Below, one piece after another: positions 1 through 48,848 of a stretch of DNA of 64,000 nucleotides. Origin of the DNA: a bacterium (GTDB lineage Bacteria; Patescibacteriota; Saccharimonadia; UBA4664; JBBRNT01); contig JAYUFZ010000010.1 in NCBI GenBank assembly GCA_043767845.1, positions 7,182 through 71,181 of the forward strand, read 5' to 3'. Within the stretch, counting starts at the first letter, position 1. Every line of letters begins with the position of its first letter. The position numbers were made by a program, and so were the translations under genes. The notes beneath the pieces were generated by a model. That model ran no database searches. It was not told the origin of the DNA and saw only the letters and a list, made by a program, of their open reading frames with translations.

Positions 1-71
1 AGCGGGTAGCGGGAATCGGACCCGCGTCTCAACCTTGGGAAGGTCGCGTTCTACCACTGAACCATACCCGC
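1..71 (-). tRNA. tRNA-Gly (anticodon CCC); 3' side at window edge (discriminator = nt 1, CCA not within window)
   Basis: Reverse complement folds as a cloverleaf: acceptor GCGGGTA/TACCCGC, D-arm GTTC-AGTGGTA-GAAC, anticodon arm CGACC-TTCCCAA-GGTTG (anticodon CCC), T-arm GCGGG-TCCGATT-CCCGC. Confidence 0.8.
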
Positions 72-11280: not shown

Positions 11281-11357
11281 TGGTGGGTCCTAGAGGAGTC
11301 GAACCTCTGACCTCTTCCACGTCAAGGAAGCGCTCTAGCCAGCTGAGCTAAGGACCC
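11281..11357 (-). tRNA. tRNA-Val (anticodon GAC), CCA encoded
   Basis: Reverse complement GGGTCCTTAGCTCAGCTGGCTAGAGCGCTTCCTTGACGTGGAAGAGGTCAGAGGTTCGACTCCTCTAGGACCCACCA; anticodon loop TTGACGT. Confidence 0.9.
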
Positions 11358-26640: not shown

Positions 26641-26716
26641 CGGGGTGTAGCGCAGTTGGTAGCGCGTACGGCTGGGGGTCGTGAGGTCGCAGGTTCGAAC
26701 CCTGTCACCCCGACCA
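26641..26716 (+). tRNA. tRNA-Pro (anticodon GGG), CCA encoded, C1-G72
   Basis: CGGGGTGTAGCGCAGTTGGTAGCGCGTACGGCTGGGGGTCGTGAGGTCGCAGGTTCGAACCCTGTCACCCCGACCA; anticodon loop CTGGGGG. Confidence 0.85.
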
Positions 26717-27080: not shown

Positions 27081-27156
27081 CGGGGTGTAGCGCAGCTGGT
27101 AGCGCGCGTCGTTCGGGACGACGAGGTCGTGGGTTCAAGTCCCGCCACCCCGACCA
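27081..27156 (+). tRNA. tRNA-Pro (anticodon CGG), CCA encoded
   Basis: CGGGGTGTAGCGCAGCTGGTAGCGCGCGTCGTTCGGGACGACGAGGTCGTGGGTTCAAGTCCCGCCACCCCGACCA; anticodon loop TTCGGGA. Confidence 0.85.
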
Positions 27157-40709: not shown

Positions 40710-41504
40710 ATGAATGAAGAACTCATAAGTAGCGTCGAAGACCTGGGGCTGAGCGAGAAAGAAGCTCGGGTTTATATTGCCTGCCTGACGCTTGGGCCTG
40801 CACCGGTGCAGAAGATTGCTGAGCAGTCGGGGATTAAGCGGGTTACTACCTATGTGATTCTCGAGGCTTTGAGTGGGCTTGGGCTGGTGAGCCAGAGTAC
40901 CAAAGCTAAAAAGACGCTGTTTATTCCAGAAGACCCTACAGCGTTGCGCCGCTTATTAGTTAAAAAGGAGCAGTCTCTCAAGGAGCAGAAGAGTAGTTTT
41001 GAAGAAATCCTGCCCAAACTCCAGCTCCTCGAATTTTTGCCGACCGATTCGCCAACTGTGCAGTTCTATGATAGCCCCGAGGGTATCAGGAATGTGATGA
41101 GTACTTTTTACGAGCGGCATAAGGGTATTGATATGGTCTACGGCATGACTAATCTAGATCAACTGTTCGAATTTTTCCCTGAAATTAGCCAGGAGAGCAG
41201 TAACCCAGAACGCACCAAGGCACGAATTTCTAGCCGGATCATCTATACTACCAAAAAAGGTCCGATTCTGCGTGATTCCGACTCGGAGAGAAACCGAATA
41301 TCCAGGTATGTACCAATCGATAAGTATCCTTTCAGTGCCGACATTAGCATCGTAGGTAATTTTATCGTGATGATGACGCTTTCAGGTAGTAAGCCGATTG
41401 CGGTTACAATCGAGAGCGTGCTGCTGGCCCAAAGCCTGACAGCCGCTTTTAATCTGGCTTGGGTAGGCGCTGAACCATACAATGACAGTTCTTCTAAGAA
41501 TTAA
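40710..41504 (+). CDS. TrmB-family transcriptional regulator
   Basis: N-terminal HTH SEKEARVYIACLTLGPAPVQKIAEQSGIKRVTTYVILEAL. Confidence 0.6.
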   Translation: MNEELISSVEDLGLSEKEARVYIACLTLGPAPVQKIAEQSGIKRVTTYVILEALSGLGLVSQSTKAKKTLFIPEDPTALRRLLVKKEQSLKEQKSSFEEILPKLQLLEFLPTDSPTVQFYDSPEGIRNVMSTFYERHKGIDMVYGMTNLDQLFEFFPEISQESSNPERTKARISSRIIYTTKKGPILRDSDSERNRISRYVPIDKYPFSADISIVGNFIVMMTLSGSKPIAVTIESVLLAQSLTAAFNLAWVGAEPYNDSSSKN

Positions 41505-41540
41505 TCGTAAGTAGTATAAGATTTTTGGCGCCATAAACTA

Positions 41541-41570
41541 TTGACGATACTGGCCAAATAGTAGTAGAAT
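41541..41570 (+). promoter_or_regulatory. Sigma70-type promoter (TTGACG-18-TAGAAT) driving the non-coding region
   Basis: ttgacg 41541-41546; tagaat 41565-41570. Confidence 0.5.
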
Positions 41571-41576
41571 GGTCTC

Positions 41577-42126
41577 GCTTCCTCTATTATGGCTAGTAGT
41601 GGAGGAAAAGTTCTCAGTTCATTGCAACACCAAATCTTAGGCGCTCGCCTAAGGCGTACGGGGCAGATCGTCCCGTCCGTGTCCCTCAGAAGGGAGCAAG
41701 ATGAATGTCTAAGCGCATTCTCCAGTCGCTCACTTCTGTCTACCTCACGCCGCCAACGTGACCTGACAAGAGGTGAGCGCTGTCACTGTTTGGCTTTTCG
41801 CTCTTAACCGACAGCGCGGAGCGACTAGCCGAAAGAGGGGCAAGAAGCGGACAGGATAGGCCTATCCACCCAATTCAAGCCTCTCACCCCCCTTGAGACC
41901 CCACCTCCCAGCGAATTGGGGACTCAAGAAGCCGCGTTGGGGTGGACCCGCCGAAGTATGGCGGGTTCATCCCAGCAAAGCAGCATCGTCGGCCTTCGGG
42001 CCATATCCTGCAGTCTCACTGCAACCCCGAAACACAGTTCAACCGCAACACATGCGACCCAGTTACCTAGCTACGGCTACGCGACTGGGTCGTAAGCATT
42101 TTATGGCCCCAAGTAGGGCTTTTTTT
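41577..42126 (+). ncRNA. Candidate about 545-nt structured non-coding RNA of unknown class
   Basis: No credible ORF; many GC-rich hairpins with UUCG/GNRA-like loops (ggccTTCGggcc, cccgccGAAGTATggcggg, ggataggcctatcc, cgcctaaggcg); bounded by the promoter above and a T7 run at 42119-42126. Confidence 0.45.
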
Positions 42127-42151
42127 GATTCCTAAGCTGGTGAAACCTAGA

Positions 42152-43201
42152 TTAAGCTTCGCCTTTATACCACTTGGCTGCAAATTCAGGTGCGATAGGA
42201 TTGATGATAACGCCCGTAGAGAGTTCAAAGCCGGCCCAAATATTCGGCCGTGGCTCAATCTTGAGGTGGAAATGTTGCTCTTCGCCGGGCAAGGAGTCTT
42301 GGAGGAAGAAATTGTAGTCGATTTGGGCCGAATCTAGCTTCTCAGTAATCTTCTTGAGCATAATAGCGATAGAGTGGCGTTCGCCGGCTGAGAGGTCGCA
42401 GAAGCGTGGACGGGGGGTCTTAGGTAATATCCAGACGCCAAAGGCCTCACGGACTGCGTAGGGAGAGATAGCAATGGCCTGGTCGTCCTCGAAGATGACC
42501 CTTTCCTTTTGCTCTTGTTCCCAGCGGATGATGTCGGCAAATGGGGAACTGCCGTGTTTACGGACATATTCGTCGAAAGCGGCGGCTTCCATCTCGACCG
42601 TCGGTGGTATAAACGGGAGCGCCACAATCTGGGAGTGGGAGTGGCCAATGCTTGCGCCGGCTCGCGGTCCGCTATTCTTGAAAATGACTACATAGCGAAT
42701 ACCAGGTTCTTGGATTAAGACTTTGTAACGGGCCAAATAAGCTTCAAAAACTGCCTCCATATGGTCGACACTGAGCTCTGAGAAGAAGGCATGGAAGTCT
42801 GGGGTGTCGACTACGACTTCTTGGCTGCCAAAAGCCTTTTCATTGGTCATGGAGAGCGCTGAATACAAATTTTTGACTACTTTGGTACGCCAATTTCCGG
42901 ATAAATCCTTCACTTCAAAGATACTCTCATCCTTGGTAAAGGCTGCTTTTTCGGCGCGCGGCCGTGGGGCGTCATGGAGTCCACCAAAACTATCCGGCCG
43001 CTGGTTGCGCCGGGGCGCCACGATTACATAACGGTCAAGGAAGTAGTGTTTGCGGATTTCGGAATCGGGTGGCGTCGCTGGGGCAGGTTGCCCTGGTGTC
43101 ACGGCTGGCTGTGCCTTAGGGGTCTGAGGCGTAGACTCGAGGCGAGAGCTTGGCAGCATGCCTCGACGGTGGAGATATTGTGCGTGTTTTTCTATTTCCA
43201 T
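42152..43201 (-). CDS. galT: Galactose-1-phosphate uridylyltransferase-like HIT-family enzyme (GalT) with a Pro-rich N-terminal extension
   Basis: GASIGHSHSQIVALPF (H-x-H-x-Q active site), IRKHYFLDRYVIVAPRRNQRP; low-complexity PQTPKAQPAVTPGQPAPATPP N-terminus. Confidence 0.75.
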   Translation of the reverse strand: MEIEKHAQYLHRRGMLPSSRLESTPQTPKAQPAVTPGQPAPATPPDSEIRKHYFLDRYVIVAPRRNQRPDSFGGLHDAPRPRAEKAAFTKDESIFEVKDLSGNWRTKVVKNLYSALSMTNEKAFGSQEVVVDTPDFHAFFSELSVDHMEAVFEAYLARYKVLIQEPGIRYVVIFKNSGPRAGASIGHSHSQIVALPFIPPTVEMEAAAFDEYVRKHGSSPFADIIRWEQEQKERVIFEDDQAIAISPYAVREAFGVWILPKTPRPRFCDLSAGERHSIAIMLKKITEKLDSAQIDYNFFLQDSLPGEEQHFHLKIEPRPNIWAGFELSTGVIINPIAPEFAAKWYKGEA

Positions 43202-48459: not shown

Positions 48460-48848
48460 GGGGCTGACATAGCTTTGACGTGGGTACCTTTACAACCTAA
48501 CTGGCAAGTCGTAGGCATGCGTTAAATCCAACTTTTTCAAATGACAATTCATTTGTATCGCGCGTGAAGTCGCTGTTCGCAGTTCCTTCATTCGCACCAG
48601 CTCTAGCCTAATCGCTTAAGCCATCGGCCTCCTGACGTCAAATGGGGAATCGGCCGGTGTTATATCATTTGACTGCTGTACAACTGAGATAGGCGTTGTA
48701 TTTAAGACTACAATCTGCTCTGTCCGCACATTTCGTTTGCTTCGAGTGCGGGTAGCTAAGAGGGCTCGTCCCACATAAGTAAACTACGCTTGTAGAAGGT
48801 TAGGGAGTAAACTCGCGGACTCGGGTGCGATTCCCGACAGCTCCACCA
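48460..48848 (+). ncRNA. ssrA: tmRNA (transfer-messenger RNA)
   Basis: 5' GGGGCUGACAUAGCUUUGACGUGGG (acceptor/D-like, compare E. coli GGGGCUGAUUCUGGAUUCGACGGG); 3' CGGACUCGGGUGCGAUUCCCGACAGCUCCACCA (T-arm + acceptor + CCA); internal tag frame ...GCA GUU CCU UCA UUC GCA CCA GCU CUA GCC UAA (48579-48611). Confidence 0.9.

Follow-up and report, generated by a model that had tools for sequence, protein, structure and literature searches.

The gap between a trmB-like and a galT-like gene of a Saccharibacterium (TM7) very probably holds a genuine RNA gene of about 550 nt on the + strand, and the RNA is, as far as sequence can tell, a member of an undescribed family that follows a TrmBL2-like regulator in Saccharibacteria and other CPR bacteria. 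What unites the family is anatomy rather than sequence: a promoter, a hairpin leader of 50-130 nt, a strong Shine-Dalgarno (SD) sequence, an ORF of 3-5 codons (hereafter mini-ORF), variable stable hairpins and a terminator. Since both the adjacency to trmB and the SD with its mini-ORF recur across loci, we consider this a new regulator-linked, ribosome-engaged RNA family. Positions refer to the window, i.e. the whole stretch of 64,000 nucleotides that was analysed; related loci are designated L001 and so on.

The trmB-galT gap and its predicted transcript

The gap measures 647 bp and is among the few large non-coding gaps of a compact genome, of which L086 is a second, 100% identical assembly. 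The product of the trmB-like gene matches Pfam TrmB (PF01978, E 7e-13). Its AlphaFold model (pLDDT 86) gives a full-length Foldseek match to TrmBL2 (5bqt, E 5e-13, TM 0.54) and, as modelled, the fold of this partner protein is TrmBL2-like. The galT-like gene is the same neighbour in 12 related loci. The predicted terminator ends 25 nt short of the galT stop codon, and the 3' UTR of galT must extend into the 3' end of the RNA. As had been noticed before, the window encodes RNase P RNA (32605-33022) and tmRNA (48460-48848) at other places. The 64-kb window contains no pth gene, and the anticodons of the neighbouring tRNAs are unrelated, which gives no tRNA link.

The original prediction described about 640 bp without a credible ORF. 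Indeed, no protein-like ORF is found in the gap, the longest being 72-80 aa, rich in R, S and G, unconserved and lacking an SD. An alternative genetic code as explanation for the ORF-poor stretches was rejected, since reading UGA as sense yields no convincing ORFs. A pseudogene of pth or another gene was ruled out, since tblastn with Pth against the window and the gaps gave no match.

The predicted promoter is present and is the sole sigma70-like match within 41300-42400. The terminal run of seven T residues is present too but starts at 42120, one position later than originally given (42119), and the terminator stem is weak (P 0.31). GC content amounts to 0.54-0.615 inside the gap versus 0.445-0.48 in the flanks, in line with the GC-rich interior that had been described. 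The minimum free energy of 556 nt of the + strand is -237.9 kcal/mol, versus -179.6 +/- 6.6 for 100 dinucleotide shuffles (z = -8.85), with z = -5.27 for the - strand of the gap and z = +0.6 for a control of equal length taken from the trmB coding sequence. The locus hence combines what is generally looked for in structured non-coding RNAs, namely an own promoter and terminator, unconserved ORFs and folding beyond that of shuffles with a preference for one strand. This agrees with the large structured + strand RNA that had been proposed, which would be transcribed from its own strong promoter (Table 1).

Table 1. Features of the trmB-galT locus and of the RNA predicted in it (window coordinates)
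Feature	Position	Strand	Remarks
TrmBL2-like regulator gene (trmB-like)	40710..41504	+	264 aa: wHTH, coiled coil, PLD-like C-terminal domain
Sigma70-type promoter TTGACG-N18-TAGAAT	41541..41570	+	37 nt past trmB stop; predicted TSS ~41577
Predicted RNA, ~550 nt, ~12 high-probability hairpin domains	41577..42126	+	z of + versus - strand, pair probabilities
5'-terminal hairpin, 11 bp, UCCUCUAUUAU / GUAGUGGAGGA	41580..41606	+	Mean pair probability 0.96
Leader hairpins CUUAGGC/GCCUAAG (7 bp, 41636-41653) and GCG-ACGGGGC/GUCCCGU-CGU (3+7 bp)	41636..41680	+	Pair probability 0.90-1.00
Small hairpin UCCCU-CAGA-AGGGA	41682..41696	+	Pair probability 0.93; half-sequesters SD AAGGGAG (41690-41696)
Mini-ORF AUG AAU GUC UAA (Met-Asn-Val-stop)	41701..41712	+	4 nt past SD
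Hairpin GAAUGU/GCAUUC	41703-41720	+	Stop codon of mini-ORF in loop
Long hairpin domain, 3+11+3+5 bp, CGCUCACUUCU / AGAGGUGAGCG	41723..41782	+	Pair probability 0.95-0.99
Two hairpin domains, 41789-41833 and 41835-41885	41789..41885	+	Pair probability 0.89-1.00
ACCCCCC linker, unpaired	41886-41892	+	Unpaired probability 0.86
Hairpin CUUGAG-CCCCA ... UGGGG-CUCAAG, C-rich apex	41892..41928	+	Apex holds CACCUCC (41902-41908), anti-SD look-alike
17-bp hairpin GUUGGGGUGGACCCGCC-GAAGUAU-GGCGGGUUCAUCCCAGC	41936..41976	+	Pair probability 0.98; its G-U pairs on + strand only
3' hairpins UGCAGU/ACUGCA (42009-42023) and gacccagt...actgggtc (12+4 bp, 42053-42094)	42009..42094	+	Pair probability 0.92-0.99
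Intrinsic-terminator-like hairpin GGCCC/GGGCU with U7	42105..42126	+	5 bp, 4 GC pairs; hairpin 42105-42120, T7 42120-42126
galT-like gene, convergent	42152..43201	-	Pfam GalP_UDP_tr_C and GalP_UDP_transf; bounds element, not part of RNA

Unpaired bases of the predicted RNA are A/C-rich and G-poor, like those of genuine structured RNAs. The stems named in the original prediction are present, including ggaua/uaucc at 41854-41867 and the gacccagt...actgggtc hairpin (pair probability 0.97-0.99), but ggcc-UUCG-ggcc at 41991-42002 has a P of 0.30 only. Across the family GNRA and UNCG account for 9 and 2 of 68 predicted tetraloops, respectively; because this enrichment is only modest, capping by tetraloops is not a defining property. 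The 5' arm of the 41723-41782 hairpin (41727-41737) can alternatively pair with the SD region in a local fold.

Known RNA classes were screened with cmscan, as had been suggested. At gathering thresholds the whole window yielded only RNase P, tmRNA and tRNAs, and the 4227 families of Rfam 15 gave nothing but chance matches in 41450-42200 at E <= 10 (Histone3 15 bits, Bp2_287 12 bits). Rfam gathering searches of 32 related loci identified nothing in the gaps. The earlier failure to match a known class was therefore borne out, whereas the comparison with OLE, ROOL, GOLLD and HEARO, whose sequence and tertiary-structure cores are conserved, was not: these and raiA were ruled out by the lack of a covariance-model match in Rfam 15. 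Moreover, no alignable sequence or consensus structure exists between genera, predicted length ranges from ~130 to 550 nt among loci and many Saccharibacteria do without the RNA, so that it cannot be a housekeeping one. That the element would be a divergent OLE, ROOL, GOLLD, HEARO, raiA, 6S or SRP RNA, a T-box, a group I/II intron or a TIGR/CRISPR-like array is suggested only by its size range and high degree of structure and is, given these searches and the lack of repeats, hardly credible.

Motif counts removed further candidates. The window RNA has 8 GGA motifs versus 8.2 expected and 4 SD-like sites versus 2.9 expected, with 123 SD-like sites versus 91 family-wide. Both a CsrB/RsmZ-type sponge and a multi-SD ribosome sponge were ruled out, since GGA is not enriched and SD-like sites at most 1.35-fold. 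A C-rich, SD-targeting seed was likewise rejected: the window RNA has its CACCUCC loop, for which no function is claimed because anti-SD-like motifs are not enriched across the family (17 unpaired versus 23.9 expected). No conserved single-stranded seed for target pairing was found, conserved sequence between loci being absent. Tandem or direct repeats were not found in the element, which is single-copy in the 64 kb, and this excludes a CRISPR, TIGR or type III toxI array as well as a MITE. The promoters of trmB and of the RNA showed no operator in common.

Related loci and the mini-ORF

A contig search with a single protein as query gave one distant locus only (L001). The closest relative of the window's TrmB-like protein among 5.8 billion proteins is only 63% identical. 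A predicted RNA directly 3' of a TrmB-family gene, on the same strand, occurs in the window and in about 35 loci with TrmB proteins 33-63% identical to that of the window. In L002-L010, L023, L031 and L033 the order is ComM(-), TrmB(+), a gap of ~470-655 nt and galT(-). The trmB-galT distance is bimodal, 474-655 nt in 12 loci and 0-30 nt in 10. About ten lineages of Saccharibacteria have kept trmB and galT without the RNA, which is therefore dispensable. A TTGAC(T/A)-N17-19-TAnnAT promoter directly after trmB is present in all 17 other non-redundant Saccharibacteria gaps. For these and the window, 18 gaps in total, z on the + strand ranges from -2.3 to -12.0 versus -1.4 to +1.8 for trmB coding controls, and it is more negative than that of the - strand in 16 of the 18. 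In distant loci a clear intrinsic terminator closes the unit ahead of the next gene, which makes the RNA a unit of its own.

The comparison of syntenic regions proposed with the original prediction showed that the position is conserved in related genomes, but the gap sequences cannot be aligned. Searches of the 86 loci and the whole window with the window RNA (nhmmer, and blastn with word size 7) returned only the self-hit. No sequence of the gaps was detectably shared with the window or, in most cases, between the gaps themselves, and MAFFT of the syntenic gaps gave a meaningless alignment and no consensus structure between genera. These comparisons show that the predicted RNA body turns over rapidly between lineages. 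Between L008 and L023, which have flanks that are 97-99% identical, the C-terminal half of TrmB is only ~50% identical and has been swapped together with the 5'-most 330 nt of the RNA, and the same holds for L018 and L029. This joint swap suggests that the RNA functions in concert with the C-terminal domain of the regulator. L076 and L085 have a second mini-ORF in common and show compensatory changes in the terminator and in the helix at the second SD, with four clean compensatory pairs inside conserved blocks, in a comparison of two sequences only.

The one recurring internal feature of the gap RNAs is a strong SD followed by an ORF of 3-5 codons. In the window it reads AAGGGAG-N4-AUG AAU GUC UAA (41690-41712) and lies within the hairpins 41682-41695 and 41703-41720. 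The SD:anti-SD duplex amounts to -7.9 kcal/mol, and the SD has an unpaired probability of only 0.26. The combination was found in about 25 loci, including distant CPR bacteria with TrmB proteins that are 33-40% identical. Besides the window these are L001, L003, L005, L007, L009, L010, L012, L015, L018 and L029 and, among distant CPR, L050, L053, L057, L059, L068, L071, L076, L078 and L080-L085. The original description as non-coding stands inasmuch as there is no protein-like ORF, but it overlooked this SD and three-codon ORF, by which the window RNA is ribosome-engaging rather than purely non-coding; the mini-ORF would be translated, to judge from its SD.

Within the window alone 16 of 51 SD-like sites on the + strand lead into an ORF of at most 5 codons, and because the combination is this common by chance the mini-ORF is significant only across loci. 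The best SD-start site leads into at most 5 codons at <= -8 kcal/mol in 19 of 65 loci versus 4.2% of the shuffles, although the reverse-complement control is not clean (9 of 65 loci). The peptides nearest to the window's Met-Asn-Val are MNG (L005), MNT (L007) and MNS (L015). Codons 2 and 3 of the mini-ORF occur as GGN GGN with varying third base (GGU/GGC/GGA), a pattern expected under selection on codons. An alignment of 25 regions set by the start codon (MAFFT and RNAalifold) gave a consensus structure of 0 pairs around the mini-ORF. ORFs of 10-24 aa that overlap the mini-ORF stop are unrelated to each other, and ATGA/GTGA overlaps are expected by chance.

Possible functions and competing explanations

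The reading we tentatively prefer, without rating it as probable, is that of a regulatory RNA controlled by the adjacent TrmBL2-like regulator, in which translation of the mini-ORF is a sensing or stabilising element. The TrmBL2-like protein would control the promoter of the RNA, akin to SgrR-SgrS or OxyR-OxyS. The functional core would be the engagement of a ribosome with the mini-ORF, the SD and coding triplets being enclosed in hairpins that are short and weak. By loading a ribosome and translating Met-Asn-Val the RNA may signal the state of translation, be protected, or both. Its many body hairpins and the 3' stem-loops might provide a long RNA life and lineage-specific interaction, possibly with a trans-acting target.

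The strongest competitor, although unlikely, is a ribosome-dependent attenuator of the vmlR/lmo0919 type. Here stalling of a ribosome on the mini-ORF, caused by an antibiotic, a lack of tRNA or low activity of Pth, would refold the RNA, such that polymerase reads through the terminator, antisense into galT in the window and into pth or another gene in other CPR. The anatomy fits the B. subtilis vmlR leader with its SD, three-codon uORF in a stem-loop (Met-Ile-Asn) and intrinsic terminator (PMC9226507), and the SD of many loci can find a pairing partner in an anti-SD-like segment 3' of the mini-ORF. Furthermore, pth is the next gene in L053, L057, L068, L081 and L083, and in L081 it starts ~15-20 nt past the RNA terminator without a visible promoter between. 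However, in L053, L057 and L068 a new promoter and a separate conserved leader precede pth, both located past the RNA terminator. The next gene is convergent in the window (galT) and in at least 12 Saccharibacteria loci, while in several loci more than 1 kb downstream is free of genes on the same strand. In the window about 400 nt with ~9 independent stable hairpins separate the mini-ORF from the terminator. No antiterminator pairing is apparent in the MFE or ensemble, hairpins being independent and local, and the alternative pairing of the SD avoids the terminator.

The adjacency of pth, seen in five or six loci, also bears on a natural minigene, in which the act of translating the 3-5 codon ORF is itself the product. 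Where the SD is strong, minigenes liberate peptidyl-tRNA, and specific tRNAs run short if Pth does not recycle them; a stable, strongly transcribed and regulator-gated RNA of this type would brake growth or act as an abortive-infection switch, Pth being its natural counterweight. The SD, start, 1-5 sense codons and stop are all present, and the potency of lambda bar and synthetic minigenes is determined by a strong promoter, a strong SD and an ORF of 3-5 codons (PMC2490762, PMC8708949). The cassette is hypervariable, mosaic and lineage-patchy like toxin or defence loci, and the highly stable body would lengthen RNA half-life. Yet the evidence is circumstantial, the pth-adjacent loci representing only 2-3 independent lineages and the 64-kb window having no pth. 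The last sense codon and the stop are not conserved, and ORFs of 29-48 codons, found instead in five lineages, would not act as minigenes. In addition, the two-codon minigene of axe-txe is cis-acting, mRNA-stabilising and non-toxic (PMC8708949). We consider the minigene quite unlikely, and rate equally low a specific two-part switch, ancient in CPR, in which the TrmBL2-like protein and the mini-ORF RNA form a regulator-gated, long-lived natural minigene for growth arrest. Round after round of mini-ORF translation would then trap ribosomes and, as peptidyl-tRNA, specific tRNAs, Pth again acting as counterweight, and the arrest would amount to dormancy or abortive infection. That the C-terminal domain of the regulator and the RNA are hypervariable together would be due to diversifying selection on the specificity of cognate pairs.

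Those 29-48 codon ORFs (L008, L023, L030, L031 and L033), which have strong SDs at the equivalent position, might alternatively be the real product of a small-protein or dual-function gene, with the mini-ORFs as decayed remnants, all the more since L023 and L033 share the string VLNR..RL. Nevertheless, the peptides are mutually unrelated, and that of L023 has no homologs among 5.8 billion proteins except its own near-identical copy. The longer ORFs in the window gap lack an SD and are of implausible composition. Decay is an unlikely source of mini-ORFs since about 25 independent lineages have their stop at exactly this distance, 3-5 codons. A small conserved protein was ruled out, given the lack of homologs and the unrelated overlapping ORFs, and we deem a gene of this kind very improbable.

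Finally, the gap may have no dedicated function and be a fast-evolving spacer or 3' UTR between two convergent genes in which GC-rich palindromes have accumulated (terminators, insertions that form hairpins, or the remains of a mobile element), its promoter and SD being fortuitous. The lack of sequence conservation and the patchy occurrence among lineages fit this. The element is flanked by one imperfect 23-nt inverted repeat (41525-41547 / 42090-42112, 78% complementary) and by a TCGTAAG direct repeat, and the gap doubles as the 3' UTR of trmB, which lacks its own terminator. Against this, promoter, SD with mini-ORF and terminator recur at the same place next to TrmB proteins that are 33-63% identical, and the gaps consistently fold in excess of expectation, with a + strand bias. 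The element is single-copy without repeats elsewhere in the window, L076 and L085 show compensatory changes and the genome is compact. Lack of function is decidedly unlikely on balance.

Known systems and significance of the family

The vmlR and Listeria lmo0919 leaders resemble the window RNA in having an SD, a three-codon ORF in a small stem-loop, more hairpins and an intrinsic terminator. These leaders, however, measure ~200 nt and lie 5' of a same-strand resistance gene, whereas the window unit has 550 nt, faces a convergent gene, spans ~400 nt between uORF and terminator, always follows a TrmB-like gene and has no evident antiterminator. Translation of a mini-ORF can sequester tRNA as peptidyl-tRNA or stabilise mRNA in cis (PMC2490762, PMC8708949). 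The minigenes of phage lambda bar and axe-txe share the strong SD and the ORF of 2-5 codons but are short elements inside other transcripts, whereas the present case is a dedicated, structured and regulator-linked RNA gene that occurs throughout an entire bacterial radiation and has the mini-ORF as its conserved core.

SgrR-SgrS/SgrT, OxyR-OxyS and agr-RNAIII/hld are comparable as regulatory RNAs beside their transcription factor, some with a small ORF. The likeness consists of an independent promoter and terminator, an adjoining (sugar-family) transcription factor gene and a 5' part that holds the ORF and is most variable. RNAIII measures 514 nt, and the window RNA is similar in size and hairpin richness. 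Unlike these RNAs, that of the window has a three-codon ORF, no conserved seed and no sequence conserved between genera, and its gene lies downstream on the same strand instead of being divergent. A conserved small protein in the style of SgrS/SgrT or RNAIII/hld is absent, the ORF having three codons and the longer ORFs being unrelated and without homologs. Rfam models detect OLE, GOLLD, ROOL, HEARO and raiA, whose sequence is conserved and whose cores covary. The window RNA resembles them in its hundreds of nucleotides, extensive predicted structure, lack of a protein and occurrence in uncultivated or unusual bacteria, but it lacks a conserved core and an Rfam match and has a ribosome-binding site.

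TrmBL2 is a chromatin-like TrmB-family protein of Thermococcales, for which we know of no RNA partner. Both TrmBL2 and the partner protein have 264 aa with a wHTH, a coiled coil and a PLD-like C-terminal domain. The partner is only 16-18% identical, bacterial (CPR), and has a C-terminal domain that is mosaic and hypervariable jointly with the RNA.

CPR/Patescibacteria constitute a large share of bacterial diversity and, to our knowledge, almost nothing is known of their regulatory RNAs. Because only the anatomy is conserved (promoter, SD with mini-ORF, hairpins, terminator and TrmB-family partner), the family is invisible to sequence and covariance screens, and a search by context, as carried out here, offers a way to discover further members. 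Should its functional core be the mini-ORF, the family would represent the first case of a dedicated RNA gene that stands on its own, is organised around a three-codon ORF and is conserved across phyla. Laboratory results on minigenes, on peptidyl-tRNA drop-off and on uORFs that sense ribosomes would thereby be tied to a natural system coupled to a regulator.

The trmB-galT interval

The 647 bp that separate the stop codons of the trmB-like gene (41504) and the convergent galT-like gene (42152) contain no credible ORF, as the original prediction had it, and its other sequence observations were likewise reproduced: the sigma70-type promoter is present, as the only such match within 41300-42400, a hairpin followed by a T-run closes the unit, GC content in the gap (0.54-0.615) exceeds that of the flanks (0.445-0.48), and all the short stems it named were found. 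The + strand RNA (556 nt) folds at -237.9 kcal/mol, compared with -179.6 +/- 6.6 for dinucleotide shuffles (z = -8.85); z was -5.27 for the - strand of the interval and approximately +0.6 for the trmB coding sequence, used as control. Partition function analysis yields some 12 hairpin domains (pair probabilities 0.9-1.0), including a 17-bp stem whose G-U pairs form on the + strand only. The region is single-copy within the window and no direct or tandem repeats were found in it.

A C-rich stretch combines a linker, ACCCCCC, that is unpaired in the fold with a hairpin loop carrying CACCUCC, identical to the 16S anti-Shine-Dalgarno (anti-SD) core. Its sequence would allow pairing with the SD of the same RNA or with those of mRNAs; across the family, motifs of this kind show no enrichment. 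The RNA gene is flanked by an imperfect inverted repeat of 23 nt, its arms 78% complementary, and by a direct repeat, TCGTAAG; an old insertion may have left them behind, or they may have arisen by chance.

The proposed cmscan search against all 4227 Rfam 15 families gave no match in the interval, and a permissive rescan of the RNA region at E<=10 gave two chance matches only (15 and 12 bits), which makes membership of a known RNA class extremely unlikely. RNase P RNA and tmRNA, correctly set apart in the original prediction, were identified by Rfam elsewhere in the window, as were four tRNAs; neither SRP RNA nor 6S RNA was detected inside the 64 kb.

Coordinates of features in the window and in related loci
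Feature	Location	Strand	Description
Promoter, sigma70-type	window 41541-41570	+	TTGACG-N18-TAGAAT
Mini-ORF	window 41690-41712	+	AAGGGAG-caag-ATG AAT GTC TAA
C-rich stretch	window 41886-41908		
Terminator	window 42105-42126	+	hairpin and T7
Bracketing repeats	window 41505-41547 / 42090-42112		
RNase P RNA	window 32605-33022		Rfam, class A, 239 bits
tmRNA	window 48460-48848		Rfam, 90 bits
Four tRNAs	window 1-71, 11284-11357, 26641-26713, 27081-27153		Rfam
Additional non-coding DNA after trmB stop	L047:3281-3801		missing from L043
Mosaic cassette	L008:2885-3612 vs L023:2885-3618		
Second SD and mini-ORF	L076:1230-1260, L085:3590-3625		
pth leader	L053:3640-3745, L057:2330-2440, L068:3630-3745		own TTGACT promoter

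A recurrent unit with a mini-ORF

The window was compared with 86 related loci (L001-L086). Database names place the relatives of its regulator in Candidatus Saccharimonadia or Saccharimonadales, the nearest being only 63% identical (C-terminal domain <=57%). Saccharibacteria keep the order ComM-like(-), TrmB(+), gap, galT(-). Since the distance between the trmB and galT stops is bimodal, 474-655 nt in 12 loci (647 nt in the window) and 0-30 nt in 10, the element is either full-size or cleanly missing. Neither nhmmer nor blastn found similarity between the window RNA and other loci, and similarity among the other RNAs is almost nil; the suggested likeness to OLE or GOLLD did not hold, this not being a conserved-fold RNA of that kind. 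A near-consensus promoter, TTGAC(T/A)-N17-19-TAnnAT, lies right behind trmB in 17/17 other non-redundant gaps. Folding of the + strand gives z from -2.3 to -12.0 in 18/18 gaps (trmB coding controls -1.4 to +1.8) and is more negative than that of the - strand in 16/18, while A is abundant (35%) and G scarce (15%) among unpaired bases, as in genuine structured RNAs. In distant CPR loci (TrmB 33-40% identical) the RNA measures 130-560 nt and is closed by a clear intrinsic terminator ahead of the next gene, which makes it a self-contained unit. The finding is real and previously unannotated, and very probably concerns a true RNA gene that belongs to a conserved, undescribed family.

Inside the RNA, some 60-130 nt past the predicted start site, a strong SD is followed 4-9 nt on by ATG (rarely GTG), 2-4 codons and a stop. 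Predicted peptides are MNG (L005), MNT (L007), MNS (L015), MVS (L009), MTH (L012), MLT (L029), MCGV (L010), MCGG (L018) and VSI (L003) in Saccharibacteria, and MGGD (L001), MGGGW (L050), MGRTH (L053), MGG (L057), MTSW (L059), MSG (L068), VGGF (L071), MND (L076), MGGGC (L078), MPTG (L080), MGK (L081), MGGQ (L082), MGV (L083), MGGG (L084) and MSC (L085) in distant CPR loci. When the best SD-start site within 350 nt past trmB was taken from 65 non-redundant loci, 19/65 combined <=5 codons with an SD duplex <=-8 kcal/mol, against 4.2% of dinucleotide shuffles, and mini-ORFs made up about two thirds of strong-SD sites where some 20% were expected. Within the window alone, chance often produces an SD-like site with a short ORF, and the reverse-complement control was raised too (9/65 loci), probably because SD/anti-SD hairpins look SD-like on either strand; the signal therefore lies in recurrence across loci rather than in a single instance. 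GGN GGN codons differ in the third base, at sequence level a pattern such as selection on codons produces.

Two loci have a second SD and mini-ORF within the same RNA, AAAAGGAGUCCUCC-AUG AAC ACC UAA in L076 and seven codons in L085, better conserved between them than the first. Close to this SD, UCCUCC pairs with GGGAGGGGA further downstream, and two compensatory changes fall in the pairing. No consensus switch structure was found around the mini-ORF, which leaves a switch of that type unsupported.

Turnover and neighbouring genes

L008 and L023 are 97.5-99% identical in both flanks, with an unalignable 728-nt block between, comprising the C-terminal half of TrmB (~50% identical; N-terminal 120 residues 94%) together with the RNA's initial 330 nt. 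The pattern recurs in L018 and L029, where TrmB identity is 86% N-terminally and ~40% C-terminally, the flanks are 79-83% identical, and the breakpoint again falls around TrmB residue 120-130. In L076 and L085, with flanks 82-90% identical, the 5' thirds of the RNAs are unalignable and the 3' two-thirds keep the second SD and mini-ORF, a long-range helix and a terminator, the last with clean compensatory changes between the two sequences. These comparisons indicate that the RNA body turns over rapidly, in part by replacement, while remaining strongly folded, and the RNA appears to travel jointly with the regulator's C-terminal domain. L047 carries ~520-550 nt of non-coding DNA behind trmB that L043 (TrmB 96% identical) lacks; with neither promoter nor mini-ORF on its + strand, this DNA is an insertion of a different sort at that junction.

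Peptidyl-tRNA hydrolase (pth) is the gene after the RNA in L053, L057, L068, L081 and L083, and lies upstream of trmB in L027 (2-463). Given what minigenes do this adjacency is intriguing; it represents only 2-3 independent lineages. No promoter is visible ahead of pth in L081. In L053, L057 and L068, three genera, a further promoter stands ahead of pth, along with a leader of ~110 nt that is distinct from the RNA, conserved in sequence (79% column identity) and absent from Rfam. It folds as a long helix GUUCCGUUUCAG...CUGGCGGAAC with the anti-SD look-alike ACCCCCUCCAA as loop of its capping hairpin; this leader RNA may regulate peptidyl-tRNA hydrolase in cis. Six loci (L050, L059, L071, L080, L082, L084) have long ORF-poor stretches 1-2.5 kb downstream of trmB, unusual in compact CPR genomes, in which neither code 11 nor a reading of UGA as sense yields a convincing ORF; they may hold more RNA genes, and those of L050 and L082 contain a second SD and mini-ORF.

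Regulator and possible mechanism

The partner protein has a TrmB wHTH domain (Pfam), and its AlphaFold model (pLDDT 86) matches TrmBL2 (5bqt) over its full length (E 5e-13). A PLD-like fold (Zucchini match) characterises the C-terminal domain, which contains no invariant His or Lys. The protein is a predicted DNA-binding regulator with a putatively non-catalytic C-terminal domain that would bind ligand or nucleic acid. The trmB-RNA pair is closest in genomic logic to SgrR-SgrS/SgrT and OxyR-OxyS, where a regulatory RNA is encoded beside its transcription factor.

We tentatively favour, as plausible though short of probable, a regulator-linked regulatory RNA, the functional core of which would be ribosome engagement with the mini-ORF, for sensing or stabilisation, within a hairpin body that is stable and lineage-specific. 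Among described RNAs, the vmlR leader comes nearest in anatomy: it is ribosome-sensing and composed of an SD, a three-codon uORF (MIN), stem-loops and a terminator (PMC9226507). By this model the RNA would be a read-through attenuator, which is unlikely, since here the next gene is convergent and ~400 nt separate mini-ORF and terminator. Translation of mini-ORFs can act in cis to stabilise the RNA, or can tie up tRNA in the form of peptidyl-tRNA (PMC8708949, PMC2490762), and the latter could make the element a natural minigene or growth brake with Pth as balance, which we consider unlikely with pth absent from the window and adjacent in so few lineages.

In L008, L023, L030, L031 and L033 ORFs of 29-48 codons replace the mini-ORF. 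These are mutually unrelated, and the L023 peptide has no homolog among 5.8 billion proteins; hence the predicted translation of a short ORF would be conserved rather than a specific peptide, and a small-protein gene is very improbable. A non-functional spacer is quite unlikely. A decayed gene is unsupported, with no residual similarity, as is tRNA linkage, none having been found; a sponge RNA is unsupported too, GGA and SD-like motifs not being enriched, and so is an SD-targeting seed, for which no enrichment was found either.

The original description, a large structured RNA of unknown class, stands as to structure and lack of a known class; what it overlooked is that the RNA carries a predicted ribosome-binding mini-ORF. 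Together with the favoured regulatory reading, the element is best filed with regulatory RNAs that adjoin a transcription factor and engage ribosomes, as a new variant.
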